Position numbers and translations under genes: made by a program. Source: Erysipelotrichaceae bacterium MTC7 (GTDB lineage Bacteria > Bacillota_I > Bacilli_A > Erysipelotrichales > Erysipelotrichaceae). Taken from it: 32,000 nt of DNA. Shown here one piece after another: positions 250 to 23,985 of this stretch; within the stretch, counting starts at the first letter, position 1; every line of letters begins with the position of its first letter. The notes beneath the pieces were generated by a model that worked only from the letters and a program-made list of their open reading frames with translations, was not told the DNA's origin and ran no database searches. The stretch covers positions 30,001-62,000 of the forward strand of contig LVZN01000002.1 of the NCBI GenBank assembly GCA_001695645.1, in the 5' to 3' direction.

Positions 250-1402
250 CGAAAACCTCGCAGCTCTGAACAAAATAGGAGACAACGATCTGGCAGTAGA
301 TATCGTCCTGCAGGGTAACGCGGTGTATCTTCCCCGCAATCTCGTTAAATATCTCCAGGCGTGACTTATTTGCCTTTTTCAGTCTTTTATAAAAAGCGTG
401 GATCTGATCCTGTATCTCATCGTAGTCGATTTCTCCGCGCTTATCCAGGTTCATCATGATTTCCCTGATCCGAGGATAGTAGGTCGTGACGTACCCGTTC
501 ACGGCTATGTATAACGCCATGTCCTGTGTGGGACTCAGTTTCTGTTTGATCTCTTTCGGGTCAAGGGAAGCTCCAACAAGCTCTTTTTCTCCGAGCTTTT
601 TGACCTTCTTGATTACGCCCACGATGCCTTTTTCAAGCGGAAGGTCATCCAGCAAGTGGACGCTCTGCTTATGCGTGGACAGGATGTTCTTTATCTCTTT
701 CAGTTCTTTGGACAGTTTCTTGCTGTCATCCAGAAGATATGTAGCGTAGCACTGCGGACACATCGCCATCAGGTTATCCGGCGTGGCGGGTTTCTGTTTG
801 TCTATCAGGCTTACCTCGTATGTATGAACCGCTTTGCCTCTATTGGTGATGGTCAGTTGTCTGCCGCAGCCGGGAAACGGGCAGTAACCGTCCGTTTCTC
901 CAAGAAGGTAATCCCCATATCTGATTTTTAGGTCTGATGCAAGCTGTTGTTGCTGCTGTTTCTGCAAAGCGTCCTGCGGAACAAGTCCGGCAGACTCCTG
1001 GACGATCTCAACCATCCAGCCGGAAATGGTGTCTGCGACATTATCCGCATCAAGCGTTGGGTCATAACCCTTCAAATCGTCAGCAAGGAGGCTCCGGGAA
1101 GTGTCACTGTGTTCGTTGATCCGCTCGACCATAACCTCCGGCGTAAGCCTGTACACGATGGAGCCTGCCAGTTTCTTTGGCAGCTTTCTTTTTGTGTAAC
1201 TGCGGATCGTCTCATCACTCAGCTTAACAGACGGGTCTTTCCCGGTTCCCCACTCATCCTCGTTCACAGTCGTTATCATCGCCATAAGCTCGCGGAAGAA
1301 GTACGGAACATCGTCGCCATCGGCTAAATGCTTTTTCATGATAGGAAACAGCGTTTTAAATTCCACGTTGGCCTGACACTCCTTTACCAAGATTTGCACC
1401 AC
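233..1402 (-). CDS. 389-aa protein resembling an ABC-3C effector: unknown N-terminal region, degenerate HNH/zinc-ribbon (CPFPGC...CPQC), helical C-terminal domain ending CEVFD
   Basis: Long ORF in a lower-G+C segment with believable amino-acid composition. Four-Cys motif CxxxxC...N-L-M-A-M-C-P-Q-C has HNH-like spacing, but the catalytic His positions appear substituted. Start is uncertain: GTG at 1402 or ATG at 1339. The functional call comes from gene context and remembered family features. Confidence 0.5.
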   Translation of the reverse strand: MVQILVKECQANVEFKTLFPIMKKHLADGDDVPYFFRELMAMITTVNEDEWGTGKDPSVKLSDETIRSYTKRKLPKKLAGSIVYRLTPEVMVERINEHSDTSRSLLADDLKGYDPTLDADNVADTISGWMVEIVQESAGLVPQDALQKQQQQQLASDLKIRYGDYLLGETDGYCPFPGCGRQLTITNRGKAVHTYEVSLIDKQKPATPDNLMAMCPQCYATYLLDDSKKLSKELKEIKNILSTHKQSVHLLDDLPLEKGIVGVIKKVKKLGEKELVGASLDPKEIKQKLSPTQDMALYIAVNGYVTTYYPRIREIMMNLDKRGEIDYDEIQDQIHAFYKRLKKANKSRLEIFNEIAGKIHRVTLQDDIYCQIVVSYFVQSCEVFDAITE

Positions 1403-1695: not shown

Positions 1696-2078
1696 AGGAC
1701 TAAGAATTTTTCAGAAGAGTCCGCTCAAACCGGCAGTTCATCTCCAGTGGATAGTGAGGGGGTTGAATTTTTCGGCAGGAAGTAGAAGGAAACCGTCAGA
1801 TTTACCCTTCTCCCAAGGCTACCTGATAGGAGCCACACAAACAAGGTAAAAGGCGGGCGACCGCTTTTACATAACAAAATATTTCAATGCCTGATTACGT
1901 ATAAGGGCAAAGGATACATATATCGGACAAGCTGCTGCGGCGGCGAAAGTGCGATATGGAGTACCCTTTCTTCCTTATACCCTTTTGCAGGCAAGTAAGG
2001 TCGGGGATGCTCCACAGGCACTCCGGCCTTTATCTGTATCTGATGCCCTTTCCCAAGAATCAGGGGAAAGGACAATCA

Positions 2079-2627
2079 ATGAAAACCAAAAAGACAAGAT
2101 GGGACAAGAGAGGCACTTACACATTCAACTTTAATGACGGCAGCAGCGTTACCGTCAGACCCGGCGAAGACGGCGTGACCGAGGCGGACATCAAAGTCCT
2201 GCACTCCCTGGACGATGCCGAGGTTTACAACAACATCAAAAATAGCCGTCCTCCGATGACAGACGCAGAGAAAGCGGAGAAAAGGAAGTGGGAGGCGGAG
2301 CATCCAGGAGAGCGGTACCCCGCAAACTGGAACCTTTCCTTCGACTACATGGCGGGCGATGACGGCGACGAGGACAAGTTGGACAAGAGCCGCATCCTTT
2401 CGGAAACCTGCACCTACATGGAAACGGAGGACGAGACCGAAAAAGAAATGCTCGACCGCATCCTGTGGTTCCTGACCGACATCCAGCGCGAGGTGTACCG
2501 CCTGGTAAAGCTCGTGGGACACACGCAGACAGAGGCGGCGGATATCCTGGGGACAAGCATTCCGAACATCAACAAGCATCTGAAGAAAGCGATGGAGCGA
2601 ATCGAGGAACAGAAAGAAAAAATGTGA
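2079..2627 (+). CDS. Sigma-70 region-4-like HTH regulator (182 aa), likely an early transcription factor
   Basis: ATG at 2079 follows GGGGAAAGGA. C-terminal segment LTDIQREVYRLVKLVGHTQTEAADILGTSIPNINKHLKKAMERI has the sigma-70 r4 / ECF-like HTH pattern. The upstream in-frame extension (1956-2078) looks non-coding. Confidence 0.6.
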   Translation: MKTKKTRWDKRGTYTFNFNDGSSVTVRPGEDGVTEADIKVLHSLDDAEVYNNIKNSRPPMTDAEKAEKRKWEAEHPGERYPANWNLSFDYMAGDDGDEDKLDKSRILSETCTYMETEDETEKEMLDRILWFLTDIQREVYRLVKLVGHTQTEAADILGTSIPNINKHLKKAMERIEEQKEKM

Positions 2628-3301: not shown

Positions 3302-4425
3302 GTGAGAAGAAACACGCGGTGCTTTCCGCATCCTCGGCACACAGGTGGCTTGCCTGCCCGCCTTCTGCTCTGGCCTGTGCCAGCGTGAAGGATACCGCAA
3401 GCGAGTATGCCCAGCAAGGGACGGACGCGCACAGCCTTTGCGAGTATAAGCTTCTGAAATCCCTGGGACAGAAAGCAGAAGACCCGACCGAGAACCTTAC
3501 CTATTTCGATGAGGAGATGGTGGGCTGCGCCGATGCCTATGCAGAGTTTGTACAGGAGCAGGTTGAGGCGGCAAAGCAGAAATGCGCCGATCCCATCGTG
3601 TTGGTGGAACAGCGGCTTGATTTCTCCGAGTATGTGCCGGAGGGCTTCGGCACCGGGGACTGCGTCATTGTCGGGGATGGGACGCTCTCGGTGATCGATT
3701 TCAAGTACGGCGTAGGGATCGTGGTCGAGGCAGAGAAGAATCCGCAGATGATGTGTTACGCGCTCGGTGCGCTGGCGCTGTTTGACGGGATCTACGATAT
3801 CGACACGGTATCCATGACCATCTTCCAACCGAGGCGCGAGAATGTCAGCACATACACCATCCCCAAGGAGGAACTGCTCACCTGGGCAAAAGAGGTGCTT
3901 GCACCGACCGCGCAGCTTGCCGCAAAGGGCGAGGGCGAATACTGCGCCGGGGAACACTGCCAGTTCTGCAAGGTGAAAGCCACCTGCAGGAAACGAGCGG
4001 AACATAACCTGGAGCTTGCCCGCTACGACTTCGAGCCTCCGGCTAACCTGGAGGACGCCGAGATCGAGGCGATCCTCGCAAGAGCGGATGAACTGGTTTC
4101 TTGGGCGGGCGACGTCAAGGAATTTGCTCTCCAGGCGGCTCTGCAGGGAAAGCAATGGCAGGACTGGAAGGTGGTCGAAGGCCGCTCCAACAGGAAGTAC
4201 ACAAACGATGACGCCGTCGCACAGACGGTGCAGGACGCCGGATACGATCCCTACGAACATAAAGTTCTGGGCATCACGGCGATGACGAAACTCCTCGGCA
4301 AAGGGAAGTTTGAGGAACTGCTCGGCTCCCTTACCTATAAGCCGCAGGGCAAACCCACATTAGTGCCGATTACGGACAAGCGTCCGGTAATGAATACGGC
4401 AGCAGAAGATTTCAAAGAAGATTAA
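3298..4425 (+). CDS. DUF2800-type PD-(D/E)XK (Cas4-like) nuclease of the phage replication/recombination module
   Basis: N-terminal LSASSAHRWLACPPS, motifs GTDAHSLCE and DFKYG, and a C-terminal Cys cluster CAGEHCQFCKVKATC typical of Cas4-like Fe-S nucleases. Conserved neighbourhood with DUF2815 and a family-A polymerase. Confidence 0.8.
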   Translation: MSEKKHAVLSASSAHRWLACPPSALACASVKDTASEYAQQGTDAHSLCEYKLLKSLGQKAEDPTENLTYFDEEMVGCADAYAEFVQEQVEAAKQKCADPIVLVEQRLDFSEYVPEGFGTGDCVIVGDGTLSVIDFKYGVGIVVEAEKNPQMMCYALGALALFDGIYDIDTVSMTIFQPRRENVSTYTIPKEELLTWAKEVLAPTAQLAAKGEGEYCAGEHCQFCKVKATCRKRAEHNLELARYDFEPPANLEDAEIEAILARADELVSWAGDVKEFALQAALQGKQWQDWKVVEGRSNRKYTNDDAVAQTVQDAGYDPYEHKVLGITAMTKLLGKGKFEELLGSLTYKPQGKPTLVPITDKRPVMNTAAEDFKED

Positions 4426-4438
4426 GGAGGACAATACC

Positions 4439-5002
4439 ATGTCAAAGAATTTTGTAAATCCCACCAAGGTTATCACTGGTCCCAACACCAGATGGAGCTA
4501 TGCGAATGTCTGGGAGGCGAAGAGCATCAACGGCGGCGCGCCGAAGTTCAGCGTGAGCCTCATCATCCCGAAGTCCGATACCAAGACCATCGAGAAGATC
4601 AAGGCGGCTATCCAGGCAGCCTACGAGGAGGGTGAATCCAAGCTCAAGGGCAACGGCAAGACCGTCCCCGCGCTCTCGGTTCTTAAGACTCCCCTGCGTG
4701 ACGGCGATCTGGAACGTCCCGACGATGAGGCGTATGCCAATGCCTTCTTCGTGAACGCCAACTCCGGCACGGCTCCCGGCATCGTGGATGCGGACAGACA
4801 GCCGATCCTCGACCACTCCGAGGTGTATTCCGGTGTGTACGGCCGCGCCAGCATCAATTTCTATGCGTTTAACTCCAATGGCAACAAGGGTATCGCCTGC
4901 GGTCTGAACAATCTCCAGAAGATGCGTGACGGCGAGCCTCTCGGCGGCAAGACCCGTGCGGAGGATGATTTCGCGGACGATGATGAGGACTTCCTCGATT
5001 GA
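4439..5002 (+). CDS. DUF2815-type ssDNA-binding-like protein with acidic C-terminal tail
   Basis: Strong RBS AAGGAGG. Sequence ...RWSYANVWEAK...FSVSLIIPK... ending in DDFADDDEDFLD, like an SSB tail. Conserved position between DUF2800 and the polymerase. Confidence 0.8.
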   Translation: MSKNFVNPTKVITGPNTRWSYANVWEAKSINGGAPKFSVSLIIPKSDTKTIEKIKAAIQAAYEEGESKLKGNGKTVPALSVLKTPLRDGDLERPDDEAYANAFFVNANSGTAPGIVDADRQPILDHSEVYSGVYGRASINFYAFNSNGNKGIACGLNNLQKMRDGEPLGGKTRAEDDFADDDEDFLD

Positions 5003-7366: not shown

Positions 7367-7711
7367 ATGGATGTATTGGAGATTCGCTACGAGAACGGAC
7401 ACATGACGATCAATGTCCCTGTGTATTTCCCGTGCCTCCAGAAACATGCAAGGAAGCTCTTCCCGATGATAAAGCGTTACTGCACCGGAAAGGACAGGGC
7501 GGCTCTCGGCCGTTACCTGTATCTTCTCCGGGCTTTTTTGCAGGCGCAGATGGAAACGGGAGACGGCTTTTCCGGCGTTCCGCCAGATTGGGAGTACGGC
7601 AGCAGGTTCGTCACATACAGCGTGACGGAACGGAAGTCGCTCTATAAACGGGCGGACAGTAACTACAGGCTTTATTGCAAATTGGAGGTAGACGACGAAT
7701 GGATGAAATGA
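7367..7711 (+). CDS. Hypothetical protein (114 aa)
   Basis: ATG at 7367 is 8 nt after AGGAGG. No recognisable motifs. Confidence 0.55.
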   Translation: MDVLEIRYENGHMTINVPVYFPCLQKHARKLFPMIKRYCTGKDRAALGRYLYLLRAFLQAQMETGDGFSGVPPDWEYGSRFVTYSVTERKSLYKRADSNYRLYCKLEVDDEWMK

Positions 7712-8139
7712 AGTACAACAGCGAGGGATATTACGATCCCACCACTTACGAGGCACTTATGAAGATCGAGCAGGAGGAACGCGCCGCAAGGAAAGCGGCG
7801 AACTACCGTCCGCTCGTGTATATCTGCTCCCCTTATGCCGGGGATGTGGAAAAGAACACCTGCAGGGCGAGGAACTACAGCCGCTTTGCCGTGGTCAAGA
7901 GGGCGATCCCGATTGCTCCCCACCTGCTCTTCCCTCAGTTCATGTCCGAGGATACGGAACGCAGCCTTGCGCTTTTTATGGGAGGCGTCCTGCTTGGTAA
8001 ATGCGATGAGGTGTGGGTGTTCGGCAACAGGATAACTGCCGGGATGCGTGAGGAGATTGATAAGGCGGAACGGATGAAAAAGAAGATCCGCCGTTTTTCG
8101 GAAGTACTGGAGGAGGAGCAGATCAATGGAATTGGATAG
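7699..8139 (+). CDS. DUF4406 / nucleoside 2-deoxyribosyltransferase-like protein
   Basis: Pattern VYICSPYAGD...APHLLFPQF...ER...LLGKCDEVWVFGNRITAGMREEI matches my memory of the DUF4406/NDT-like fold family. Start choice (7699 or 7708) is uncertain. Confidence 0.5.
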   Translation: MDEMKYNSEGYYDPTTYEALMKIEQEERAARKAANYRPLVYICSPYAGDVEKNTCRARNYSRFAVVKRAIPIAPHLLFPQFMSEDTERSLALFMGGVLLGKCDEVWVFGNRITAGMREEIDKAERMKKKIRRFSEVLEEEQINGIG

Positions 8140-15484: not shown

Positions 15485-16285
15485 ATGTTTGAAAAAGTAA
15501 ATCCCGCACATCCCGATAAACTGGCTGACCGCATCGCCGGGGCCATTGTGGATGCCGCATACAGAAAAGAAAGTGATCCGAAGATCGCCGTGGAAGTCCT
15601 GCTCGGTCACGGAATGTGTCACATTATCGCGGAGACTTCTGTACATATTCCGAAGGGCGAGATCACGGATATTGTCCGCCGTATCGCCGGGAATGTGAAA
15701 ATCAGCGTCCAGGAAGTTCCGCAGGACGGGCACCTGTCTAAGAATCAGTCTGCCGGGTTTCGCTGCGGTGACAACGGCATCTTTAAGGGCGTGCCTGTGA
15801 CGGATGAGCAGAAAAAGCTGACAAAGATCGCCGCAGATATCTACGGTCAGTACCACGCTGACGGCAAGTATATTCTGGACGGCGATAATCTGACCTTCTG
15901 CCAGAGCAATGCAGATACACAGCAGCTGAAGAAATCATATAAGAAAGCCGTGGTCAATCCGCTGGGTGACTGGACGGGCGGCACGGATGTGGACGCAGGA
16001 GCCACGAACAGGAAGCTCGGCTCTGATATGGGCGATTCCGTCACAGGCGGCGGTCTGCACGGTAAAGACCTGTCAAAAGCTGACGTGTCCGTGAACATCT
16101 GGGCATGGCTCAAGGCGCAGGAAACCGGCAAGCCCGTGGAGCTTTCCTGCTCCATCGGAGATGAGAAGGTCGGCGGCGTGCCGTATACGGAGATCGTAGA
16201 GACCGCGAGGAAATACATCGATGGTCTCGGCGGTTTTGAGAAATTTGCGGAATGGGGGTTGGTGCGATATGAAGACAACGACTGA
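15485..16285 (+). CDS. metK: Compact (266 aa) S-adenosylmethionine synthetase (MetK) homolog
   Basis: Aligned by eye to MetK signatures: AHPDKLADRIAGAIVDA (GHPDKxxDxISDAxLDA), CGDNGIFKG (GAGDQGxMFGYA), NPLGDWTGG...ATNRKLGSDMGD (NPTGRF..GGP..D.GLTGRKIIVDTYGG), GGGLHGKDLSKADVS (GGGAFSGKDPxKVDRS). About 120 aa shorter than canonical MetK. Confidence 0.7.
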   Translation: MFEKVNPAHPDKLADRIAGAIVDAAYRKESDPKIAVEVLLGHGMCHIIAETSVHIPKGEITDIVRRIAGNVKISVQEVPQDGHLSKNQSAGFRCGDNGIFKGVPVTDEQKKLTKIAADIYGQYHADGKYILDGDNLTFCQSNADTQQLKKSYKKAVVNPLGDWTGGTDVDAGATNRKLGSDMGDSVTGGGLHGKDLSKADVSVNIWAWLKAQETGKPVELSCSIGDEKVGGVPYTEIVETARKYIDGLGGFEKFAEWGLVRYEDND

Positions 16286-17528
16286 AATGCAGCTCGTTCC
16301 GATTGCAAAACTGGTACCTTATGTGAATAACGCGCGTACCCACTCCCCGGAGCAGATAAACAAGCTGCGATCCTCCCTCCGGGAGTTCGGCTTCATCAAT
16401 CCTGTCATTATCGACCGTGACTTTGGCGTTATCGCCGGCCACGGTCGTATTCTTGCGGCGAAAGAGGAAGGCATCACGGAAGTGCCGTGTGTCTTTGCCG
16501 ACCATCTGACAGAGGCGCAGAAGAAAGCGTATATCATCGCCGACAACCGCATGGCGATGGACGCCGGATGGGACGAGGAGCTTCTGCGTGTCGAGATCGA
16601 GGCTTTGCAGGGCATGGACTTCGATCCCATGCTCACAGGCTTTGATGAAAAGGAACTGGCTGACCTGTTTGGCACAGAGTCTGACAGCGAGGCGAAGGAT
16701 GATGACTTTGACCTGACCGCCGCATTGGAGAAAGCCGCCTTTGTGGAGCGGGGTGATATCTGGACAGTGGGCAGACACAGGCTGATGTGCGGAGACGCTA
16801 CGGACGCTGGAGATGTCGCATTGCTGATGGGCGGCAGGAAAGCCAACCTTATCGTGACAGATCCTCCGTATGGCGTATCCTTCAAGAGTTCCAGCGGTCT
16901 TACCATACAGAACGATTCCATGAAGAACGAGGAGTTTTACAACTTCCTGTTCGCTGCGTTCAAGTGTATGGCGGATGTGCTGGAGAAAGGCGGCGCGGCT
17001 TATGTGTTCCACGCGGACACCGAAGGCTTGAACTTCCGAAAAGCGTTCATTGACGCCGGGTTCCACCTGGCGGGCGTGTGTATCTGGGTGAAGAATTCCC
17101 TGGTACTTGGTCGCTCGGATTATCAGTGGCAGCACGAGCCGGTGCTTTACGGATTCCTGCAGAACGGCAAGCATCCGTGGTACTCCGACCGCAAGCAGAC
17201 CACCATCTGGAATTATGATAAGCCAAAACGTAACGCCAACCATCCGACATCAAAGCCGCTCGACCTGCTCGGATACCCTATCGGGAATTCCTCGCAGGAG
17301 AACTCCATCGTGATCGATACCTTCGGCGGCAGCGGCTCCACCATGATGGCATGCGAACAGATGAACCGCATGTGTTTCACTATGGAGCTGGATGAGAAGT
17401 ACGCATCGGTCATCCTCCGCAGGGCTGTGGAGAACGGCATTGATCCCGCTGACATTTATGTTGAAAGAAACGGAGAAAAAATGATGTACTCCGACCTCGT
17501 GAAAGAGGTGGAGGTTCCTAATGAGTAA
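16269..17528 (+). CDS. ParB-like nuclease domain fused to a beta-class N6A/N4C DNA methyltransferase
   Basis: N-terminal ParB/Srx-like segment (VPYVNNARTHS...IAGHGRILAA). Methylase motif IV IVTDPPYG precedes motif I DTFGGSGST (beta-class order). Overlaps metK-like by 17 nt and the next gene by 8 nt. Confidence 0.85.
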   Translation: MKTTTEMQLVPIAKLVPYVNNARTHSPEQINKLRSSLREFGFINPVIIDRDFGVIAGHGRILAAKEEGITEVPCVFADHLTEAQKKAYIIADNRMAMDAGWDEELLRVEIEALQGMDFDPMLTGFDEKELADLFGTESDSEAKDDDFDLTAALEKAAFVERGDIWTVGRHRLMCGDATDAGDVALLMGGRKANLIVTDPPYGVSFKSSSGLTIQNDSMKNEEFYNFLFAAFKCMADVLEKGGAAYVFHADTEGLNFRKAFIDAGFHLAGVCIWVKNSLVLGRSDYQWQHEPVLYGFLQNGKHPWYSDRKQTTIWNYDKPKRNANHPTSKPLDLLGYPIGNSSQENSIVIDTFGGSGSTMMACEQMNRMCFTMELDEKYASVILRRAVENGIDPADIYVERNGEKMMYSDLVKEVEVPNE

Positions 17529-19659
17529 ACTGACGCTTGGCAGCCTGTTTGACGGTTCCGGCGGTTTTCCTTTGGGCGGCTTGATTTCCGGCATCACTCC
17601 CGTGTGGAGTTCGGAGATCGAGCCGTTTCCCGTTATGGTGACTTCGAAGCGGCTGCCGTTTGTGAAACATTATGGTGACGTATCCACGTTAAAGGGCGGC
17701 GAGCTTGAGCCGGTGGATATCATCACCTTCGGCTCACCCTGCCAGGATATGTCCGTGGCGGGTAAAAGAGAGGGGCTGGACGGCTCCCGTTCAAGCCTTT
17801 TCTATGAAGCTGTCCGAATCGTAAAGGAAATGAGGTGTGCAACCAATGGAAAATATCCGAGATACATCGTCTGGGAGAACGTCCCAGGCGCGTTCAGTTC
17901 GAACAAAGGCGCGGACTTCCAGTCCGTCCTCGAAGAGATCTGCAGCGTCAAAGGATACGAGATTGATCCTGCTCGACCTGCGAAATGGCCAAACGCCGGA
18001 GAGATCGTGGCAGACGATTTCAGTCTCGCATGGCGGGTATTTGATGCTCAATACTGGGGAGTTCCCCAGCGAAGAAAACGTATCTACCTTGTCGCAGATT
18101 TTGCAGGCGGGAGTGCCGGAAAAATATTATTTGAGTCAGAAGGCATGTCTGGGTATACTCCGCAGGGCTTCCGCTCGTGGGAAGGAGCTGCCGGAACTGC
18201 TGAAGAAGGCGCTCATGCGTCAGGCATCGGCATAGACGGATACAACGGAGCTGTCTCTGATGAGGCGGCTACCCTTGGCGAGAACTGCGGGATGTCCACG
18301 GGCAGGAACGGCGTCATGGTCTTAAACGACCAGGGCGGCGACCGCATGGATGTGACGGAGGGAGTGACCTGTACGCTCCGCGCAGAGGCGCACCATCCTC
18401 CCTGCGTGATGGGAGCGGCGGGTTTCTGCACTGAGCATTCAGCGGATTCCAGGGGCATCGGATATGAAGAGGAGACTTCTCCCACGCTCCGTGCCGGGAC
18501 AGTTCCGGCTGCGGTCTATGAGAACCACAGCCAGGATACCAGATACACGGGGCCGCTTGATGTGGCTCCTACGGTGATGTCCACCTACGGAACGGGCGGC
18601 AATAACCAGCCGTTCGTGGTGGAGGACACTCCGAAAACGCTGAAGATCCGTTCCGGCTGTGAGGGTGGCGGTAAGGGCGCACTGATACAGGATAATAAAT
18701 CGGCAACGCTCGGCTGCAACAACGATCAGACCGTCTTTGTGCCGTTTGTAAAAGGCACCCGTCCACATTCTGCCGAAGAGGGACAGCAATGGAAGGAATC
18801 CGATGTGGCAAATACGCTGAATACCCATGACGTCGGCGAGGCAAGGTGCAACGAGCTGGCGGTTAAGGTCTACGGCATCTGCTCCAAGGATTCAAACGCC
18901 ATGAAGTCCGATAATCCGAAAAGCGGATTCTATGAGGCGGATACCACACGGACGCTTGACGCAAACGGCGGCAACCCCTCCTGCAACCAGGGCGGCATGG
19001 CTGTCGTGGCTCTTGAGGGCAACGGTGCAAGACCGTCCCATAAGGGCAGCGGCTATTCCGAGGAAGATGTCAGCTTCACGCTGAATGCTACAGAACAGCA
19101 TGCCGTAGCATACGGCATCGACCGTGCTACCTATAACATGGGGCAGAACGCCAAGTTCGGGATCGCGGTCGAGGAGGAAGTCGAGCCTACGATGGTGGCA
19201 AAGGGACCGGGCGCGGTCGGACAGCCTGTGTACCATTCCAGCAAGAGTTCATTTCACACGAATTTCTCAGATGAAGCTGTATCTGATACGCTTGTTGCCA
19301 CTGACTTCAAAGACCCGCCGACGGTATCGGAAGACCCATATTATATCGTGAGGAGACTTACTCCTACTGAGTGCGCAAGGCTGCAGGGCTTTCCCGAATG
19401 GTGGTGCGACGGGCTTGGAACGGACGAGCCGACCGAGGAGGAGATTGCTTTCTGGACGGAGGTGTTTGAAACGCATCGGAGGGTTATGGGGACATCCTCC
19501 AAGCCGAAGACCAGGAACCAGATCATCAAGTGGATCAAGGAGCCGCATTCCGACTCCGCAGAATATAAGATGTGGGGCAACGGCGTGGCTTTGCCGAATG
19601 TCTGCTTTGTGCTTTCGGGGATCGTGTACTATGCACAGTTCCCGGAATTTTTGTTGTGA
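17521..19659 (+). CDS. DNA (cytosine-5) methyltransferase, 712 aa, with a target-recognition region of about 400 aa made of repeated TL-type units
   Basis: Motif I LFDGSGGF, motif IV GSPCQDMS, motif VI ENVPG, motif VIII QRRKRIYLV, motif IX RRLTPTECARLQGFP, motif X GNGVALPNV. Between VIII and IX are 11 occurrences of (D/E)(D/E)xxxT(L/V/M). Confidence 0.9.
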   Translation: MSKLTLGSLFDGSGGFPLGGLISGITPVWSSEIEPFPVMVTSKRLPFVKHYGDVSTLKGGELEPVDIITFGSPCQDMSVAGKREGLDGSRSSLFYEAVRIVKEMRCATNGKYPRYIVWENVPGAFSSNKGADFQSVLEEICSVKGYEIDPARPAKWPNAGEIVADDFSLAWRVFDAQYWGVPQRRKRIYLVADFAGGSAGKILFESEGMSGYTPQGFRSWEGAAGTAEEGAHASGIGIDGYNGAVSDEAATLGENCGMSTGRNGVMVLNDQGGDRMDVTEGVTCTLRAEAHHPPCVMGAAGFCTEHSADSRGIGYEEETSPTLRAGTVPAAVYENHSQDTRYTGPLDVAPTVMSTYGTGGNNQPFVVEDTPKTLKIRSGCEGGGKGALIQDNKSATLGCNNDQTVFVPFVKGTRPHSAEEGQQWKESDVANTLNTHDVGEARCNELAVKVYGICSKDSNAMKSDNPKSGFYEADTTRTLDANGGNPSCNQGGMAVVALEGNGARPSHKGSGYSEEDVSFTLNATEQHAVAYGIDRATYNMGQNAKFGIAVEEEVEPTMVAKGPGAVGQPVYHSSKSSFHTNFSDEAVSDTLVATDFKDPPTVSEDPYYIVRRLTPTECARLQGFPEWWCDGLGTDEPTEEEIAFWTEVFETHRRVMGTSSKPKTRNQIIKWIKEPHSDSAEYKMWGNGVALPNVCFVLSGIVYYAQFPEFLL

Positions 19660-19661
19660 GT

Positions 19662-19751
19662 TATTCTACACCGAAATGTGCGGAAATCGCTTGATATTCC
19701 TGGGGTTCAGAGTGATTAATGTACTACCAAAAACAAAGGAGGTTTTCGCAC
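19662..19751 (+). promoter_or_regulatory. Promoter/leader cassette, copy 1 (most divergent)
   Basis: TTGATA (19691-19696), a 19-nt spacer, then TG-A-TTAATG inside TTCAGAGTGATTAAT (19706-19720). AAAGGAGG RBS, ATG at 19752. Confidence 0.5.
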
Positions 19752-20468
19752 ATGGAAATCAGGTACAACGTAACAGGCGCACAGCGCAAGGAACTGGTAA
19801 AGGCCATCGCCGATACCACGGGAGCAAAGGCAAAGTACATGGGAATGCCCACGGCAGCCTACGAGATCGACTACTTCACGGTAACCAAGGACGGAATGCT
19901 CATCTTCGATGACAGAGCGGACAGCGAGGAAGTGGAGCAGGTGCTTGAGGCCATCGCCGCCGCAGGGTTCGACTGTGAGCCGCAGGACGGAGAGGATTCG
20001 GAGTTTGAGGAAGTATCCGAAACCGAAGAGAACGCACCACAGGCGGCCACAGACGGGCTTACGGTGGCGGTTCCGAGGGACAGCCTTTCGGACGCCGCCA
20101 TTGAGAACCTGCAGAGGATCGTGGATTCCAAGGCGGCGCTCATGAAAAAGGCAATCGGCACGGACAGCCTTCCGATTGAAGTGACTGACGAGAAGGTATC
20201 CTTCCCCTGGTTCACGGAGATGGACGGCGATTCCGCAAGGGCATACACGCACCTTGTCTCCGCACTCTGCGAGATGGCGAGGAACGCCAAGCGAGTGACC
20301 GCCACGGAAAAGGAAGTCGACAACGAGAAGTACGCATTCCGCTGCTTTCTCCTGCGTCTGGGCTTCATCGGTGCTGAGTACAAGACCGAACGTAAAATCC
20401 TGCTGAAGAACCTCACGGGCTCCTCGGCTTTCAAGAACGGAGGTACTGACCATGAGATTTCCGAGTAA
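19752..20468 (+). CDS. 238-aa protein: apparent catalytically gutted paralog of the downstream amidoligase (shared N-terminal strand-helix and C-terminal module, acidic linker replacing the core)
   Basis: C-terminal KYAFRCFLLRLGFIGAEYKTERKILLKNLTGSSAFKNG versus amidoligase KYAMRTWLLRLGFIGEEFATARDFLTRNLSGDTAFRHG. N-terminal EIRYNVTGAQRKELVKAIADTTG resembles amidoligase VEVEMNSIKRSKAAKIAADFFG. No HIHIG-type core. Confidence 0.6.
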   Translation: MEIRYNVTGAQRKELVKAIADTTGAKAKYMGMPTAAYEIDYFTVTKDGMLIFDDRADSEEVEQVLEAIAAAGFDCEPQDGEDSEFEEVSETEENAPQAATDGLTVAVPRDSLSDAAIENLQRIVDSKAALMKKAIGTDSLPIEVTDEKVSFPWFTEMDGDSARAYTHLVSALCEMARNAKRVTATEKEVDNEKYAFRCFLLRLGFIGAEYKTERKILLKNLTGSSAFKNGGTDHEISE

Positions 20469-20688
20469 AGAGATTGTGGATCGTATCCGCAAACAGTACC
20501 CTGTCGGCTGCCGGGTAGAACTTGTGCAGATGGACGATGCCCAGGCTCCGCCAATCGGCACGAAAGGAACAGTCACCGGAGTGGACGATACCGGCTCCCT
20601 CCTCATGCGGTGGGACAACGGCAGTGGACTGAACGTGGTCTACGGCGAGGATATCGTAAGGAAGGTTGATGATTTGAGTGACCAATAA
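20452..20688 (+). CDS. DUF4314-like small protein (78 aa)
   Basis: GCRVELVQMDDAQAPPIGTKGTVTGVDDTGSLLMRWDNGSGLNVVYGED matches my memory of the DUF4314 SH3-like module common in Firmicute mobile elements. GGAGG RBS. Confidence 0.55.
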   Translation: MRFPSKEIVDRIRKQYPVGCRVELVQMDDAQAPPIGTKGTVTGVDDTGSLLMRWDNGSGLNVVYGEDIVRKVDDLSDQ

Positions 20689-20986
20689 GATTCTTTCGGA
20701 TTTCTTCTACGGCAACATCGTGCCGAACGAGAAGCAGTTTGACCGCAATTCGGAATTTGGCAGAGCGGCAGACGAACTGGCCAAGGAGGAAGAGAAGCTC
20801 CGGACAATGCTGGACGACAACACGCTGGCATTACTTGACAGGATGATACAGCTGCAGGGAACTGTTACGGGCATGACCGCAGAAGGGTACTTCATTGACG
20901 GATTCCAGACAGGATTCCGAATTGCATTGGCAGTCCTGTATGAGGGAGAAAAGCCCTTCCTCAAAGCGGTATCCGAGGGGACATAA
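20678..20986 (+). CDS. Small helical protein of the YGNI-P-x-E ... GF-x-x-GF-R family common in Clostridia mobile elements
   Basis: GTG start at 20678. FFYGNIVPNEKQF...EEEKLRTMLDDNTLALLDRM...YFIDGFQTGFRIAL pattern. I believe this is a catalogued DUF but am unsure of its number. Confidence 0.5.
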   Translation: MTNKILSDFFYGNIVPNEKQFDRNSEFGRAADELAKEEEKLRTMLDDNTLALLDRMIQLQGTVTGMTAEGYFIDGFQTGFRIALAVLYEGEKPFLKAVSEGT

Positions 20987-21136
20987 TCTACACAATTCAT
21001 GCCGGTTTTACGGGCGGATATTCGTGTACATTATGGCGAGAAATAACTTGATAAAAGTGTGCTTCAGAGTGATATATAGACACACCGAAGGGAACGAAAC
21101 CCTCGGAAAACAAAGGATTTCAAGGAGGCACACACC
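20987..21136 (+). promoter_or_regulatory. Promoter/leader cassette, copy 2
   Basis: Imperfect palindrome TACACAA (20989-20995) / TCGTGTA (21022-21028). TTGATA (21048-21053), a 19-nt spacer, then TG-A-TATATA within TTCAGAGTGATATAT (21063-21077). AAGGAGG RBS, ATG at 21137. Confidence 0.55.
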
Positions 21137-22087
21137 ATGAACGCAAGGACAGAGAGACAGATTACCGAGATGAAGAACCAGACCATCGGGGTCGAGGTCG
21201 AGATGAACAGCATCAAGAGGAGCAAGGCAGCGAAGATTGCCGCCGACTTCTTCGGAACAGGCAGATACGAGAACACAGCAAGCCGCAACGGGTACTACAC
21301 CTGGTCGGCTTGGGACAGCGAAGGTCGCGAGTGGAAATTCCAGAGGGACGTTTCCATCAGCGGACCGGACGATGAAAAATGTGAGATGGTCACGCCGATC
21401 CTTACCTACGGCGATATCGAAACCCTTCAGGAACTTTGCAGACAGCTTCGACACGCAGGCGCAAAGAGCGATGCCAGCCGGGGCTGCGGAGTCCACATCC
21501 ACATCGGAGCGAACGGTCACACGCCGCAGACGCTCCGCAACCTCGCAAACATCATGGCAAGCCATGAGAGTCTGATCGCCGAGGCTTTGAAGCTCGACCG
21601 CTACCGCATGGACAGATACTGCCGCACGGTGGACCCGAACTTCCTGCAGGCGGTCAACCGCAAGAAGCCTAAGACCATGAGCCAGCTTGCGGACATCTGG
21701 TATACCTCGCAGGGAGCGAGCTACGGCAGGACGCAGCACTACAACGACAGCCGCTACCATATGCTCAACTACCATGCGACCTTCACGAAGGGCACCATCG
21801 AGTTCCGGCTCTTCCAGTTCGATGAGCCGACAGCGGAGCGCAAGGGCGGCATCCATGCAGGACAGCTGAAGAGCTACATTCAGCTTTGCCTCGCACTCAG
21901 CCAGATGGCAAAGGACGTGCGGACGGCAAGCCCGAAACCGCAGCAGAACGAGAATCCGAAATACGCCATGAGAACCTGGCTTCTCCGCCTCGGATTCATA
22001 GGAGAGGAATTCGCAACGGCGAGGGACTTCCTTACCCGCAACCTTTCCGGGGACACGGCATTCAGGCACGGCAGAGCCGCCGCTTGA
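21137..22087 (+). CDS. Amidoligase (Amidoligase_2 / glutamine-synthetase-like fold family)
   Basis: IGVEVEMNS N-terminal strand, W-x-F-x-RD-x-S, CGVHIHIG, GTIEFRLFQ: the signature order I recall for PF12224-type amidoligases of phages and conjugative elements. Confidence 0.75.
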   Translation: MNARTERQITEMKNQTIGVEVEMNSIKRSKAAKIAADFFGTGRYENTASRNGYYTWSAWDSEGREWKFQRDVSISGPDDEKCEMVTPILTYGDIETLQELCRQLRHAGAKSDASRGCGVHIHIGANGHTPQTLRNLANIMASHESLIAEALKLDRYRMDRYCRTVDPNFLQAVNRKKPKTMSQLADIWYTSQGASYGRTQHYNDSRYHMLNYHATFTKGTIEFRLFQFDEPTAERKGGIHAGQLKSYIQLCLALSQMAKDVRTASPKPQQNENPKYAMRTWLLRLGFIGEEFATARDFLTRNLSGDTAFRHGRAAA

Positions 22088-22167
22088 AGGACTTAGGTTA
22101 AATGCCCTGCCTTCTGACCGCTTCGGCGGTCTTAAGGTGGTAGAAGGACAAGTAACCTAAGTCCTTC
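22086..22167 (+). other. Structured 82-nt intercistronic element (15-bp perfect outer stem, inner stem, UUCG-capped hairpin)
   Basis: GAAGGACTTAGGTTA (22086-22100) is the exact reverse complement of TAACCTAAGTCCTTC (22153-22167). Inner CCTTCT (22110-22115) pairs with AGAAGG (22142-22147). GACCGC-TTCG-GCGGTC at 22116-22131. No downstream U-tract. Confidence 0.5.
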
Positions 22168-22186
22168 AGAAAGGACGGTAACGACT

Positions 22187-22660
22187 ATGGCAAAGAGATA
22201 CTACATCGCTTACGGCAGCAACCTCAACGTTCCGCAGATGCGGATGCGCTGCCCACGCGCCACGATCCTCGGAACGGCGAACCTTACGGGCTGGGAGCTG
22301 CTTTTCAAGGGAAGCAAGACAGGCTCCTACCTCACGATTGAGGAATGCGAAGGCGGCACGGTTCCCGTGGTGATCTGGGAAGTGACGGAATCGGACGAGG
22401 CGGCTCTTGACCGCTACGAGGGGTTTCCCACCTTCTACTACAAGAAGGACATCAAGCTGAAGTACAAGGGCATCCGAACGGGAAAGCGCAGGACGGTGAC
22501 GGCGTTCGCCTACATCATGCACGAGGAGCGTCCCATCGGTGTTCCGAGCAATTTCTACATGAGGACTTGCCTTGAGGGATACGACACCTTTTACTTCGAC
22601 AAGAACATTCTGATCGATGCTTACGATAAATGCAGGGAGGTATGCGGCCATGAAGGATAA
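22187..22660 (+). CDS. Gamma-glutamylcyclotransferase (GGCT / AIG2-like) family protein
   Basis: YYIAYGSNLNVPQMRMRCPRATILGTANLTGWELLFKG... and ...ALDRYEGFP..YYKK are classic AIG2/GGCT N-terminal and central motifs. Confidence 0.8.
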   Translation: MAKRYYIAYGSNLNVPQMRMRCPRATILGTANLTGWELLFKGSKTGSYLTIEECEGGTVPVVIWEVTESDEAALDRYEGFPTFYYKKDIKLKYKGIRTGKRRTVTAFAYIMHEERPIGVPSNFYMRTCLEGYDTFYFDKNILIDAYDKCREVCGHEG

Positions 22661-22850
22661 TGTGATAAGGATGGCGGTCTGCCCGCTGTGCGGAAAGAAC
22701 TACCACGGCGCTCCGGCCCTTTCGAGAACGGATAACAAAACGCTCATCTGCCCGGACTGCGGAACAAGACAGGCGCTCCAGTCCATCGGCGTGGATGCCG
22801 AGGAGCAGGAACAGATCATCGAGACGATCCACCGTCACACGCAGGAGTAA
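22650..22850 (+). CDS. Small 4-Cys zinc-ribbon protein (66 aa)
   Basis: ATG at 22650 is 9 nt after GGGAGG and overlaps the GGCT stop. CPLCGK...(20 aa)...CPDCG. Confidence 0.6.
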   Translation: MKDNVIRMAVCPLCGKNYHGAPALSRTDNKTLICPDCGTRQALQSIGVDAEEQEQIIETIHRHTQE

Positions 22851-22974
22851 TATACACAATTCCTGCGGTGGATATTTGTGTAGATTATGCCTTGGAAATC
22901 TACAGAAATAGCTTGCTATTATCGTCGTTCAGAGTGATATATGTACATACCAAAACGAACGGAGGATAACCACC
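22851..22974 (+). promoter_or_regulatory. Promoter/leader cassette, copy 3
   Basis: Palindrome TACACAA (22853-22859) / TTGTGTA (22876-22882). TTGCTA (22913-22918), a 19-nt spacer, then TG-A-TATATG within TTCAGAGTGATATAT (22928-22942). GGAGG RBS, ATG at 22975. Confidence 0.55.
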
Positions 22975-23451
22975 ATGATGAACACGAACAACAGCTATTT
23001 TGAAGAGATGAAGCGCATCGGCTACGCATGGGAAGAGGCACAGGTCGAACGGAAGAACCGCAAGCAGCAGATCATCGACACCCTCGGCTGGGACAGCGAG
23101 GAACTGAAAGCCTGGTACGAAGAGGACAAGGCTGCGGTTTTCCCCTTCCCACAGGGTGCAAGCAAAGCCTACCGCGCATGGGCAGGCAGCATCAGCCGCA
23201 AGGAGGACGAGGTCGAGATGGACGATTTCCTTTGGGAAAAGGAAGTACACGACTTCATCGACACGCTCCGCAGGGCGGGCATTCAGACCTTTGTTTACAC
23301 CAACCAGTCCACAGCGGTGATGGAGAACCTCCACGCCTTTGCCGCAGAAGGTTGCACGATGGACGGGCTTTGCACCATCACTCGGCACGAAGACCGCTGG
23401 GGCGATGAGGAGCCGACCGAGGTCATGGGCATCCGGTTCAGCGTGAACTGA
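22975..23451 (+). CDS. Hypothetical protein (158 aa)
   Basis: Own promoter cassette and RBS. Believable composition. No family recognised. Confidence 0.6.
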   Translation: MMNTNNSYFEEMKRIGYAWEEAQVERKNRKQQIIDTLGWDSEELKAWYEEDKAAVFPFPQGASKAYRAWAGSISRKEDEVEMDDFLWEKEVHDFIDTLRRAGIQTFVYTNQSTAVMENLHAFAAEGCTMDGLCTITRHEDRWGDEEPTEVMGIRFSVN

Positions 23452-23595: not shown

Positions 23596-23874
23596 ATGAC
23601 AATTAACGATGCAATGAGAACCTACAGACTGCCGAACCCCACCACGCCAGAGGACTTGGAATGCCGCTGGAGCAAGGTGCTGAACTTTGGAGACAAGGTG
23701 CTTCTTGCTGGGTATTACTACAACGGGCAGAACAAGCCTTCCTACTTCGGAGCGGTTTACGAGTACCTTGAGGACGGCAGGCACGACTGCGAAAGCACCA
23801 TCGGGCTTTATGCGGCAAGCGAGGTCGAGTTCGAGGATGATGGCCACGCGATTGCCTGGGCGATGCAGCAGTAA
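23596..23874 (+). CDS. Hypothetical protein (92 aa)
   Basis: Own promoter cassette and RBS. No family recognised. Confidence 0.55.
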   Translation: MTINDAMRTYRLPNPTTPEDLECRWSKVLNFGDKVLLAGYYYNGQNKPSYFGAVYEYLEDGRHDCESTIGLYAASEVEFEDDGHAIAWAMQQ

Positions 23875-23985
23875 GATACAGAAAAACGAATAACCAAAGG
23901 GACGAGCCGGAAGGCTCTGTCTCTCGTACAGATAGATTTATGGACGGCTTGCCATTGGCAGGTCATTTTTTATGCCATTCGGGAG

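Follow-up and report, generated by a model that had tools for sequence, protein, structure and literature searches.

Conserved RNA element and catalytically dead paralog accompany an amidoligase-gamma-glutamylcyclotransferase gene pair in temperate phages of gut Clostridia

Introduction

Transient gamma-glutamyl handles are used in the ergothioneine (EgtA/EgtC), butirosin (BtrJ/BtrG), and putrescine (PuuA/PuuD) pathways. EgtA and PuuA are ligases of the GS/GCL fold and BtrG is an enzyme of the AIG2/GGCT fold; BtrJ is an ATP-grasp enzyme, unlike the GS-fold ligase described here. In the gamma-glutamyl cycle, gamma-Glu-X is made by ligases related to GCL, YbdK, and GshF, and 5-oxoproline and X are released by gamma-glutamylcyclotransferase (GGCT; C7orf24 in humans). 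Two other systems invite comparison, namely pupylation, with its PafA ligase and Dop deamidase, and com-mom of phage Mu, where a small zinc-finger protein binds an mRNA hairpin and thereby activates translation.

A gene neighborhood of Amidoligase_2 and AIG2/GGCT was reportedly described for phages and mobile elements of Firmicutes by Iyer, Abhiman, Burroughs, and Aravind in Mol Biosyst in 2009, and presumably also figures in the Pfam description of PF12224. PMC11253131 and PMC11318856 both credit the pairing to Iyer et al. (2009). It is carried by module B of C. difficile Tn6164 (orf22/23; PMC3485107), by Terrisporobacter phage TPDSL_ph1 (PMC11253131), and by prophages of C. clostridioforme (PMC11318856), and it is listed for Arthrobacter cluster AL phages (PMC5513430). 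The earlier reports concern the same two families, adjacency, and hosts as the locus described here, but they are annotations or predictions and, in their available text, none includes the conserved RNA, the dead amidoligase paralog, or the zinc ribbon.

The locus had been singled out from the DNA sequence alone as encoding an amidoligase, a GGCT, and a zinc ribbon whose target and purpose were uncharacterized. A literature search gave no experimental work on the ligase-GGCT module, in line with that statement. The pairing of ligase and GGCT proposed in the original prediction is real, but it is not a new observation, having already been noted in 2009 and in several phage papers. What appear to be new are the conserved RNA, the dead amidoligase paralog upstream, and a DUF4314 protein as a near-constant companion. 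A paper on polyvalent proteins mentions none of the module's domains, and a Klebsiella 'amidoligase' paper was set aside as not relevant, the enzyme there being an ATP-grasp.

Results and Discussion

Genomic Setting of the Module

The window, the whole stretch of 32,000 nucleotides that was analyzed, belongs to a Heliusvirales-type temperate phage of gut Clostridia. The module (Table 1) lies in a variable island with DNA methylases on one side and the large terminase on the other. Between TerS and TerL, the order is a SAM-synthetase-like gene, a ParB-N6/N4 methyltransferase, a C5 methyltransferase, the dead paralog, and, further on, the ligase and then Nmad4 ('nucleotide modification associated domain 4'). 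A scan for tRNA and tmRNA returned 0 genes.

Table 1. Features of the module and its flanking cassettes, in window coordinates.
Feature	Coordinates	Strand	Evidence
Repeat cassette copy 1, 5' of dead paralog	19682..19739	+	repeat family, core 21-mer
Catalytically dead amidoligase paralog	19752..20468	+	phrog_2443, BLASTP, hhalign
DUF4314 small protein, 78 aa	20452..20688	+	Pfam E 8e-32
DUF6809 protein, 102 aa, variable member of upstream cassette	20678..20986	+	Pfam E 4e-20
Repeat cassette copy 2, 5' of amidoligase	20982..21136	+	D1 copy plus D7
Amidoligase_2 enzyme, 316 aa	21137..22087	+	Pfam, conserved residues, AF2, Foldseek
Structured RNA at amidoligase 3' end	22085..22175	+	folding, covariance model, covariation
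GGCT/AIG2-fold gamma-glutamylcyclotransferase, 157 aa	22187..22660	+	Pfam, phrog_2520, active site
Putative C4 zinc-ribbon protein, 66 aa, phrog_2945	22650..22850	+	ORF call, invariant Cys
Repeat cassette copy 3, end of ligase-GGCT-zinc ribbon unit, 5' of DUF7698	22851..22974	+	repeat family

This setting among methylases and Nmad4, between the terminase subunits, would suit an enzyme system that modifies DNA or nucleotides, in which an amine of a base or nucleotide precursor receives a glutamyl-type group from the ligase, GGCT trims that group, and the product acts with the neighboring methylases against restriction. The dead paralog sits after DNA methylases even in phages without the ligase, which also fits such a role. 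However, GS-fold ligases are not known to take part in any DNA modification. Moreover, genes for a base hydroxymethylase, 5-hmdU kinase, aGPT-Pplase, glycosyltransferase, or deazaguanine pathway were found neither among the window ORFs scanned nor in the annotation of the complete related genome TPDSL_ph1 (PP197246), which bears out the original prediction that hydroxymethylase, DNA kinase, and glycosyltransferase are missing. DNA hypermodification is not supported, and we regard modification of DNA or nucleotides in general as quite unlikely.

Amidoligase and GGCT

The ligase matches Amidoligase_2 (PF12224) over positions 1-244 of the 245-position profile (E = 3.4e-54; 184.7 bits against a cut-off of 22). 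Across 59 diverse homologs with 37-67% identity, residues E20, E22, H120, H122, E222, and R224 show either no variation or conservation of at least 90%; they form the ExE, HxH, and ExR motifs, by which a GS fold binds metal and ATP. A search of PDB sequences with the ligase gave no match. The AF2 model (pLDDT 95.6, pTM 0.94) has as its best PDB neighbors in Foldseek the gamma-GCS domain of GshF (2.4e-5), YbdK (3.9e-4), GS, gamma-GCS, and Dop, all of them modest matches with TM about 0.4 and 10-13% identity. The protein is probably an ATP-dependent carboxylate-amine ligase of GS/gamma-GCS fold and, judged by its full GS/gamma-GCS-type catalytic set and its modeled fold, it looks active. The family comprises 4,388 clusters at 50% identity. 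N-terminally extended members carry no recognizable fused domain, and a single exception has a C-terminal DUF6262.

The cyclotransferase matches GGACT/AIG2-like PF06094 (E = 1e-12; 49.1 bits against a cut-off of 22.8), AIG2_2 (PF13772; 27.7 bits against a cut-off of 27), and phrog_2520 (E = 8e-53). Y9-G10-S11-N12-L13 and E78 are invariant among its homologs and align with YGSNL and the glutamate of LDEQEG in human GGCT, of which E98 is presumably the catalytic residue. The profile matches human GGCT (2.8e-10) far ahead of GGACT (0.03). With its catalytic site intact, this enzyme also looks active.

For ligase and cyclotransferase alike, the nearest solved folds and sequences are those of the gamma-glutamyl cycle, the catalytic residues of which are conserved in the module, and the same making of gamma-Glu-X and release of 5-oxoproline and X is predicted for it. 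In contrast to the cycle, the module's ligase is of a distinct family, its setting is a phage, and neither glutathione synthetase nor transpeptidase accompanies it. At the expense of ATP, the ligase would couple glutamate, through its gamma-carboxylate, to X, a primary amine or an amino acid, and GGCT would cyclize the glutamyl part of the product to 5-oxoproline, freeing X or a modified X. We infer glutamate as the carboxylate from the partner enzyme alone, and the 'make-and-break' of a gamma-glutamyl linkage from the chemistry of the two families. If the ligase makes gamma-Glu-X and GGCT frees X, the gamma-glutamyl group would be a transient handle, as it is for EgtA/EgtC, BtrJ/BtrG, and PuuA/PuuD, with which the module seems to share the logic of an ATP-dependent glutamyl ligase and a dedicated remover. 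A small, amino-acid-like X is favored over protein lysine because the affinities of the ligase are with gamma-GCS and YbdK and the remover is a GGCT rather than a GGACT. In Arthrobacter phages, a GAT-II gene lies beside the ligase-GGCT pair, reminiscent of EgtC in the ergothioneine pathway. The handle pathways encode intermediate tailoring enzymes, however, and the module has no evident gene for such an intermediate step. Were there no such step, the pair would run as an ATP-driven shunt from glutamate to 5-oxoproline, like the short circuit of gamma-GCS and GGCT. The reading that we prefer, tentatively and with a little less than even confidence, is a transient gamma-glutamyl handle or a glutamate-to-5-oxoproline cycle on an amine, with an RNA acting in cis and a paralog as partner.

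Given the established biochemistry of that short circuit, another possibility is that a futile cycle of ligase and GGCT burns ATP while turning glutamate, or a host gamma-glutamyl compound, into 5-oxoproline and so reprograms or poisons host metabolism, either during lytic growth or in an abortive-infection-like exclusion from the prophage. The lack of an intermediate enzyme, the moron-like provision of each unit with its own promoter-like cassette, and the proximity of the remover to GGCT proper, which acts on gamma-Glu-amino acids, are all consistent with such sabotage or take-over. A constitutive futile cycle would be costly to a lysogen, however, and the dead paralog, DUF4314, and the RNA would be left unexplained; there are also loci with the ligase only. 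NCBIfam and PADLOC searches of the module proteins gave nothing informative; no defense model in PADLOC-DB 2.0 was matched apart from a marginal match of the zinc ribbon (E = 1.2e-3), which is a further point against sabotage. We consider sabotage or take-over unlikely.

Dead Paralog and Upstream Cassette

The first gene of the cassette that precedes the ligase unit encodes a paralog of the ligase (hhalign probability 100%, E = 2.9e-44, 228 columns) in which ExE, HxH, and ExR are all replaced. It matches phrog_2443 (E = 9.5e-70), and its tail matches that of the ligase (BLASTP, 43% identity, E = 1e-17), a C-terminal helical tail of ~70 aa being common to both proteins. Its true start is likely the ATG at 19752, 3' of the RBS AAAGGAGG. 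GenBank records annotate it as 'virulence-related protein'. Two-piece tblastn matches (H7, H20, and H21) had raised the candidate of a split or intron-containing amidoligase, which was rejected, the second piece being the tail of the upstream dead paralog.

The DUF4314 protein is near-constant in module neighborhoods, where it lies 5' of the ligase or, in other lineages, directly 3' of the RNA or GGCT; a search for its homologs gave stand-alone proteins only. Both it and the dead paralog belong to the conserved neighborhood of the module and were absent from the original prediction. The DUF6809 gene was found in a subset only of related loci.

The dead paralog would probably form a regulatory or adaptor complex with the ligase, with which it has the helical tail in common. 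A GS-fold ligase with a diverged paralog nearby, and Dop among its fold matches, resembles pupylation, but the module's paralog has no catalytic residue left, no Pup-like tag is present, and a GGCT would be a meaningless partner if the glutamate were linked to protein. More broadly, the ligase might attach an amino acid or peptide to a protein, a peptide, or the envelope, for instance to block superinfection, with the paralog as substrate adaptor and GGCT recycling by-products. Such a role was predicted for the phiEco32-type amidoligase; PMC11253131 and PMC11318856 credit Iyer et al. (2009) with the prediction. The fold neighbors, moreover, include protein ligases of the Dop/PafA type. Yet the Dop match is weak (E = 0.02) and ranks below gamma-GCS and YbdK, and no module protein has a Pfam family match that indicates export or envelope association. 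GGCT enzymes also require a free alpha-amino glutamyl group and are therefore inactive on protein-embedded residues. We consider modification of proteins or the envelope distinctly improbable, slightly more so than modification of DNA.

Zinc Ribbon

The third ORF was called at 22617/22650-22850 on the + strand, and the ATG at 22650 was chosen as its start because homologs begin MK.... This start overlaps the GGCT stop codon (22658-22660) by 11 nt. C11, C14, C34, and C37 (CPxCG...CPDCG) and the motifs PALSRxD and GTRxAL are invariant among homologs. Matches to Pfam and NCBIfam zinc-ribbon models all fall below cut-offs, with weak ones to Zn_ribbon_8, HVO_2753, and Com-like models. The domain assignments of ligase and GGCT in the original prediction, the gene overlap, and the hairpin described below proved correct, and that of the zinc ribbon is probably so.

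A Pup-like tag was ruled out for this protein, the C-termini of 105 unique sequences being variable (E 23, R 20, G 14, ...) with no conserved C-terminal Gln or Glu. Pup-like tagging is not supported, and this also counts against modification of proteins. The small C4 zinc-ribbon gene, overlapping a modification-type enzyme gene near a conserved mRNA structure, recalls com-mom of phage Mu. However, matches to Zn_ribbon_Com are weak and sub-threshold (6/13 homologs, best E = 3.7e-4), the zinc ribbon is last in the module, so that gene order differs, and lineages that lack the zinc ribbon still have the RNA, which also weakens the case for an obligate RNA-binding partner. The protein is a clade-specific accessory that may bind nucleic acid.

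A Conserved RNA Element

Between ligase and GGCT lies an RNA that is conserved, covarying, strand-specific, and previously uncatalogued. Although no more than a detail in the original prediction, it is the least anticipated part of the module. The arms of the intergenic hairpin (22085-22108 and 22145-22168; 24 nt, 88% complementary) give an MFE of -51.4 kcal/mol (22085-22168; z = -5.9), and 0/200 shuffles fold as well. The outer stem begins at the TGA stop codon of the ligase. CUGCCUU pairs with AAGGUGG (P2), the inner hairpin P3 is GACCGC-UUCG-GCGGUC, and GAAGGAC and GUCCUUC can alternatively form a local hairpin, P4. The invariant 3' strand is the 17-mer CUUAAGGUGGUAGAAGG (22129-22145). The element adjoins the GGCT RBS (GAAAGGA, 22170-22176), which despite this proximity is not obviously occluded in either fold.

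A seed alignment and covariance model were needed because MAFFT/RNAalifold on raw intergenic sequences gave the inner hairpin alone. The model matches 22104-22148 on the + strand, and the element scores 84 bits on the + strand against 27 bits on the - strand, with one + copy per locus. In the alignment, 95.3% of cells pair, a share that drops to 28-63% if the partners are slid. The covariation score is 0.109, against 0.058, and 0/500 shuffles reached that value. P3 occurs as at least 6 different Watson-Crick helices, and P4 in at least 4 variants. A small ORF inside the RNA was ruled out, loop and junction lengths varying out of frame. Rfam 15 gave no match at the gathering score in the whole window, and at E up to 10 only spurious miRNA/lncRNA matches far below threshold.

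The 17-mer lies 3' of an amidoligase gene in ~115/117 IMG/VR loci and is kept beside ligases as diverged as 41-46% identity. The RNA stays at the 3' end of the ligase where GGCT or the zinc ribbon is missing. In our preferred reading of a gamma-glutamyl handle or cycle, it would most likely act in cis, as an element of processing, stability, or translation that runs from the ligase stop codon to the next RBS, and would set the ratio or timing of ligase and remover. The invariant GAAGG segment can pair in two ways that exclude each other, which would fit a switch. Of the features expected of a riboswitch, the element shows a conserved core with variable peripheral stems and alternative pairings next to an RBS. 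It might belong to a new RNA class dedicated to amidoligase genes, either a riboswitch-like sensor of the ligase product or of 5-oxoproline or a cis-encoded partner of the ligase or dead paralog, a proposal that we consider unlikely. A sensor would gate the gene behind it, and a partner would serve the ligase or dead paralog as binding site, scaffold, or substrate; in either case the module would be a ribonucleoprotein system and not a plain two-enzyme operon.

Distribution and Gene Linkage

Co-occurrence of ligase, GGCT, and zinc ribbon, for which a survey had been proposed at the outset, was strongly positive in both species genomes and IMG/VR. Among 80 species genomes, GGCT is 3' of the ligase in 75/75 and the zinc ribbon follows ligase-GGCT in 70/71, and the order of the three genes is the same in every IMG/VR locus of sufficient length. 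The trio holds as a unit in the close clade, but distant lineages that keep ligase, RNA, and GGCT have dropped the zinc ribbon. Four loci keep ligase and RNA with DUF4314 in place of GGCT, and Porphyromonas phages have the ligase alone, so the ligase can evidently work without a dedicated remover.

Most surveyed loci come from a single phage group, in which ligase identity is 77% or higher, and the genome scan, made with a 12-sequence ligase alignment, gave close relatives only. Shared descent in one phage lineage could account for the linkage of genes that are functionally independent, the hairpin being an intercistronic stabilizer; that the accessory island is mosaic apart from the module agrees with this. 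Against it, the linkage recurs in phages of Actinobacteria and Bacillus with a different gene order and ligase identity of 23-25% (GGCT-Amid-GAT in Arthrobacter phage Salgado; Amid and GGCT 1.1 kb apart in Bacillus phage 031MP002), and where identity of the flanking proteins has fallen to the 41-46% noted above, the core of the RNA does not vary. We consider independent genes very improbable.

Present in at least 590 species genomes and at least about 600 IMG/VR stretches, the module ranks among the most widespread uncharacterized enzyme pairs of phages from the human and animal gut. The identity of its substrate would reveal a chemistry, whether metabolic, counter-defensive, or modifying, that temperate Clostridia phages impose on their hosts. 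Cultured carriers include Terrisporobacter petrolearius DSL (phage TPDSL_ph1), [Ruminococcus] torques ATCC 27756, Evtepia gabavorous KLE1738, Blautia difficilis M29, Longibaculum muris DSM 29487, and Anaerofustis stercorihominis DSM 28733. Because several cultured lysogens carry it, the module is experimentally tractable now; both enzymes look active, the dead paralog is a probable partner of the ligase, and the RNA is sharply defined and directly probeable.

Repeat Cassettes and Transcription Signals

A 58-nt repeat (family D1) occurs four times in the window, at 19682, 21039, 22904, and 23513. Its 21-nt core is matched 4 times (0.00 expected), each time in the accessory region. In the cassette upstream of the ligase, a promoter-like segment, a 5' leader, and an RBS (AAGGAGG, 21122-21128) accompany an imperfect inverted repeat (TACACAA...TTCGTGTA). 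Read by eye, TTGATA ... TGATATATA may be a -35-like hexamer and an extended -10-like element; a sigma-70 scan left this copy unflagged. The copy that ends the unit has an inverted repeat (ACACAA-N16-TTGTGT) and a promoter-like segment, with a sigma-70-like match (TGGAAA-18-TATTAT) at 22893-22922. No terminator-like site was found on the + strand between 21000 and 23900, and the first one, at 23946-23974, lies directly 5' of TerL.

Linkage and distribution of the ligase module

The amidoligase (ligase), GGCT, and zinc ribbon genes constitute a real unit. ORF, domain, and sequence checks of the window upheld the three ORFs and domain assignments of the original prediction, including the overlap of the zinc ribbon start with the GGCT stop (11 nt), and the survey of gene neighborhoods bore out the proposed co-occurrence. 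In 80 IMG/VR loci, for which ligase similarity (80–96% identity) was the sole selection criterion, GGCT and then the zinc ribbon were directly 3′ of the ligase on every contig long enough, and a 249-aa ORF and DUF4314 were upstream in almost all. Likewise, among 80 species-representative genomes, the ligase was followed by GGCT (75/75) and the zinc ribbon (70/71) and was preceded by a putative dead paralogue (52/63) and DUF4314 (50/63). At least 590 species genomes were confirmed by scan, with hosts among the Lachnospiraceae, Oscillospiraceae, Ruminococcus, Blautia, Christensenellaceae, Erysipelotrichales, Anaerofustis, and Peptostreptococcaceae. The module is thus an extremely widespread ‘known unknown.’

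The ligase-GGCT link also extends far outside the close clade. Arthrobacter phage Salgado has the order GGCT-amidoligase-glutamine amidotransferase, and Bacillus phage 031MP002 encodes amidoligase and GGCT within 1.1 kb; Porphyromonas phages encode the ligase alone. In distant Heliusvirales lineages (ligase 41–46% identical), the zinc ribbon is often absent, and DUF4314 is sometimes 3′ of GGCT or even in its place. That the genes are independent and joined solely by shared descent is unlikely because the pair recurs in unrelated phage groups.

The core pairing is not novel. The Pfam PF12224 description reportedly includes it. For phages and mobile elements of Firmicutes, the link between amidoligase and AIG2/GGCT dates to Iyer et al. 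(2009), according to two papers citing it for this exact pair (PMC11253131, PMC11318856), and the pair is listed in Tn6164 (PMC3485107) and Arthrobacter cluster AL phages (PMC5513430). Our literature search found no experimental characterization of the pair, consistent with the earlier statement that its target and purpose are uncharacterized. Apparently new are the conserved RNA element, the dead paralogue, and a wider definition of the module, spanning dead paralogue, DUF4314, ligase, RNA, GGCT, and optionally the zinc ribbon; with them the system becomes experimentally tractable.

Features of the window
Feature	Coordinates	Strand	Remarks
CTD11 ORF	233-1402	-	389 aa; E 7.7e-38
Sigma-70 region-4 protein	1956-2627		
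DUF7768 protein	7675-8139		E 5e-40
SAM-synthetase-like protein	15485-16285		266 aa; N-terminal domain only (E 1e-11; phrog_1569)
C5 cytosine methylase	17521-19659		712 aa; Pfam match in two stretches (best, residues 6-192)
Putative dead paralogue	19719-20468		probable start ATG 19752, after AAAGGAGG RBS
DUF4314	20452-20688		
DUF6809	20678-20986		
Ligase (Amidoligase_2)	21137-22087	+	
Conserved RNA element	22085-22175	+	hairpin 22085-22168
GGCT	22187-22660	+	
Zinc ribbon	22650-22850	+	
DUF7698	22975-23451		
Nmad4	23596-23874		E 4e-23
Terminator-like hairpin	23946-23974	+	GGCTTGCCATTGGCAGGTC ATTTTTTATG

Predicted activities of the ligase and GGCT

The GS-fold catalytic residues of the ligase (E20/E22, H120/H122, and E222/R224) show little or no variation among 59 homologs (37–67% identity), and GGCT retains the YGSNL loop and catalytic glutamate; both enzymes therefore look active. 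The ligase AlphaFold model is confident (pLDDT 95.6), and in the PDB it comes nearest to the gamma-GCS domain of GshF, YbdK, glutamine synthetases, E. coli gamma-GCS, and Dop. With TM-scores of only about 0.4, it is a distinct branch of the gamma-GCS/GS fold. The GGCT profile gave a much stronger match to human GGCT (2.8e-10) than to GGACT (0.03).

The natural coupling would be formation of gamma-Glu-X by the ligase followed by release of 5-oxoproline and X by GGCT. Of the proposed ‘make-and-break’ system, the two enzymes stand as apparently active by their conserved residues, whereas their coupling is drawn from family chemistry. A possible reading, and chemically the simplest, is host sabotage through a futile Glu-to-5-oxoproline cycle. 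Only the neighborhood, which includes methylases and Nmad4 (‘nucleotide modification associated domain 4’), points to DNA hypermodification, but no known-route enzyme was found among the window ORFs scanned, as originally noted for thymidine hypermodification, or is annotated in the complete genome of the active Terrisporobacter prophage TPDSL_ph1 (PP197246). Pup-like tagging is unsupported, given that the zinc ribbon C-terminus is variable and protein-embedded glutamate is not a possible GGCT substrate.

A conserved structured RNA

The structured RNA predicted between ligase and GGCT was recovered as a hairpin (-51.4 kcal/mol, z = -5.9) that exemplifies a conserved element. In related loci, the ligase-GGCT spacer retains an invariant 3′ strand, CUUAAGGUGGUAGAAGG. 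On its 5′ side is a GC-rich inner hairpin with compensatory changes (GACCGC/GCGGUC, CCCGC/GCGGG, GACCAC/GUGGUC, GAGCGG/CCGCUC, GGACGG/CCGUCC, and GGCAG/CUGCC), and a local hairpin on its 3′ side also covaries (GAAGGG/CCCUUC, GAAGGAC/GUCCUUC, GAAAGGG/CCCUUUC, and GAAGAA/UUCUUC); outer stems are swapped wholesale between classes. A GAAGG segment has alternative pairings, with upstream CCUCC/CCUUC or downstream CCCUUC.

A covariance model based on 19 sequences detected a single copy at each locus, on the mRNA strand (up to 84 bits versus about 27 bits on the reverse strand), with the match starting no more than about 30 nt from the stop codon of the ligase. In the model-fitted alignment, paired cells amounted to 95.3% (28–63% with partners slid), five pairs showed double changes, and the covariation score (0.109) exceeded all 500 shuffles, figures that are biased in favor of the structure because the alignment was fitted to it. 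Independent support comes from the alignment-free helix tally.

Searched for as an exact match in IMG/VR, the 17-mer 3′ strand occurred at 117 loci; where the contig permits a check, all are downstream of an amidoligase gene except a chance coding match (L190). The 17-mer also occurs beside ligases only 41–46% identical to that of the window, and at four loci the next gene is DUF4314, not GGCT. The element ends 0–2 nt before the RBS of the next gene. It had no match in Rfam 15, and no amidoligase-associated RNA motif was found in the literature search. We favor a cis-acting element for processing, stability, or translation, which would set expression of the ligase versus the remover; a riboswitch-like or protein-binding role is possible.

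Several loci depart from this arrangement. L118 (IMGVR_UViG_3300010163_001843) has two copies (4121-4169 and 4543-4595) about 420 nt apart in the ligase-GGCT interval. Five loci (L009, L019, L022, L025, and L074) have an extra small ORF between the RNA, which remains at the ligase end, and GGCT, with spacers of about 290 nt. In five genome loci (L259, L261, L263, L276, and L280), a minority type among close ligase homologs, a longer, different GC-rich sequence replaces the element and could itself form another structure, unrelated to the first.

A putative pseudo-enzyme upstream of the ligase

The ORF upstream of the ligase, annotated in GenBank as ‘virulence-related protein,’ has no Pfam match. 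It belongs to the same PHROG as the ligase and shares the last ~70 ligase residues (43% identity). Profile-profile comparison (117 against 149 homologs) matched the two across 228 columns (probability 100%, E 2.9e-44), yet ExE, HxH, and ExR are all substituted and about 47 residues are missing. This match and these losses identify it, from sequence, as a catalytically dead amidoligase paralogue.

Paralogue-tail proteins with the same annotation are encoded by Streptococcus phage Javan191 (L286, 3066-3749) and Clostridium phage CWou-2020b (L287, 3276-3998). Their genes, the clostridial one in a C. botulinum phage, directly follow DNA methylases and precede terminase, and neither phage has an active ligase or GGCT. 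The role of the paralogue is therefore not strictly tied to the ligase. This placement suggests that the pseudo-enzyme has its own role in connection with the methylase-packaging region.

Phage context and repeat cassettes

The 32-kb window belongs to a temperate phage or prophage of Clostridia, of siphovirus type. A sigma-like gene, DUF2800 nuclease, Enc34-type SSB, PolA, VapE primase-helicase, VRR-NUC, SNF2 helicase, HNH, and TerS are followed by an accessory island comprising a SAM-synthetase-like protein, a ParB-N6/N4 methylase, a C5 methylase, and four short cassettes, and then by TerL, portal, ClpP protease, capsid, and head-tail genes. Among annotated relatives, ‘Ca. Heliusvirales’ gut phages PV0364xx are the nearest (ligase identity 67–81%); among the genome matches listed, the closest comes from a roe-deer rumen MAG of Lachnospiraceae (98%).

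Several genes outside the module merit mention. The CTD11 ORF (of ABC-three-component, ABC-3C, conflict systems), lies at the left edge of the window and runs against the direction of the phage genes; it may be an accessory gene carried by the prophage for defense or on the lysogeny side. The phage-encoded sigma-70 region-4 protein has a TPDSL_ph1 homolog annotated RNA polymerase sigma factor. Within the replication module, the DUF7768 ORF has a possible counterpart, by position, in a TPDSL_ph1 gene in the DNA polymerase-helicase interval annotated ‘nucleoside 2-deoxyribosyltransferase’; nucleotide-pool manipulation could be relevant. The SAM-synthetase-like protein, directly 5′ of both DNA methylases, may be truncated or divergent MetK-like. 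The split Pfam match of the unusually long C5 methylase indicates a large insert between catalytic motifs.

The ‘promoter cassette’ originally assigned to the trio is a real 58-nt repeat, with four copies confined to the island, but the copy preceding the ligase escaped a generic sigma-70 scan, and promoter function (TTGATA/TTGCTA and TGATATAT) is only plausible. The copies precede dead paralogue-DUF4314-DUF6809, ligase-GGCT-zinc ribbon, DUF7698, and Nmad4, respectively; the inverted repeat ACACAA-N16-TTGTGT is also present in copies 3 and 4. Presence of Nmad4 and DUF7698 varies among related loci, suggesting that cassettes act as exchangeable moron-like units. On the + strand, the island has a single terminator-like hairpin followed by a T-run, positioned 12 nt ahead of the TerL start codon (GTG). 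Given that 8.5 kb of accessory genes and this apparent terminator separate TerL from TerS, late transcription may depend on read-through or a separate promoter.
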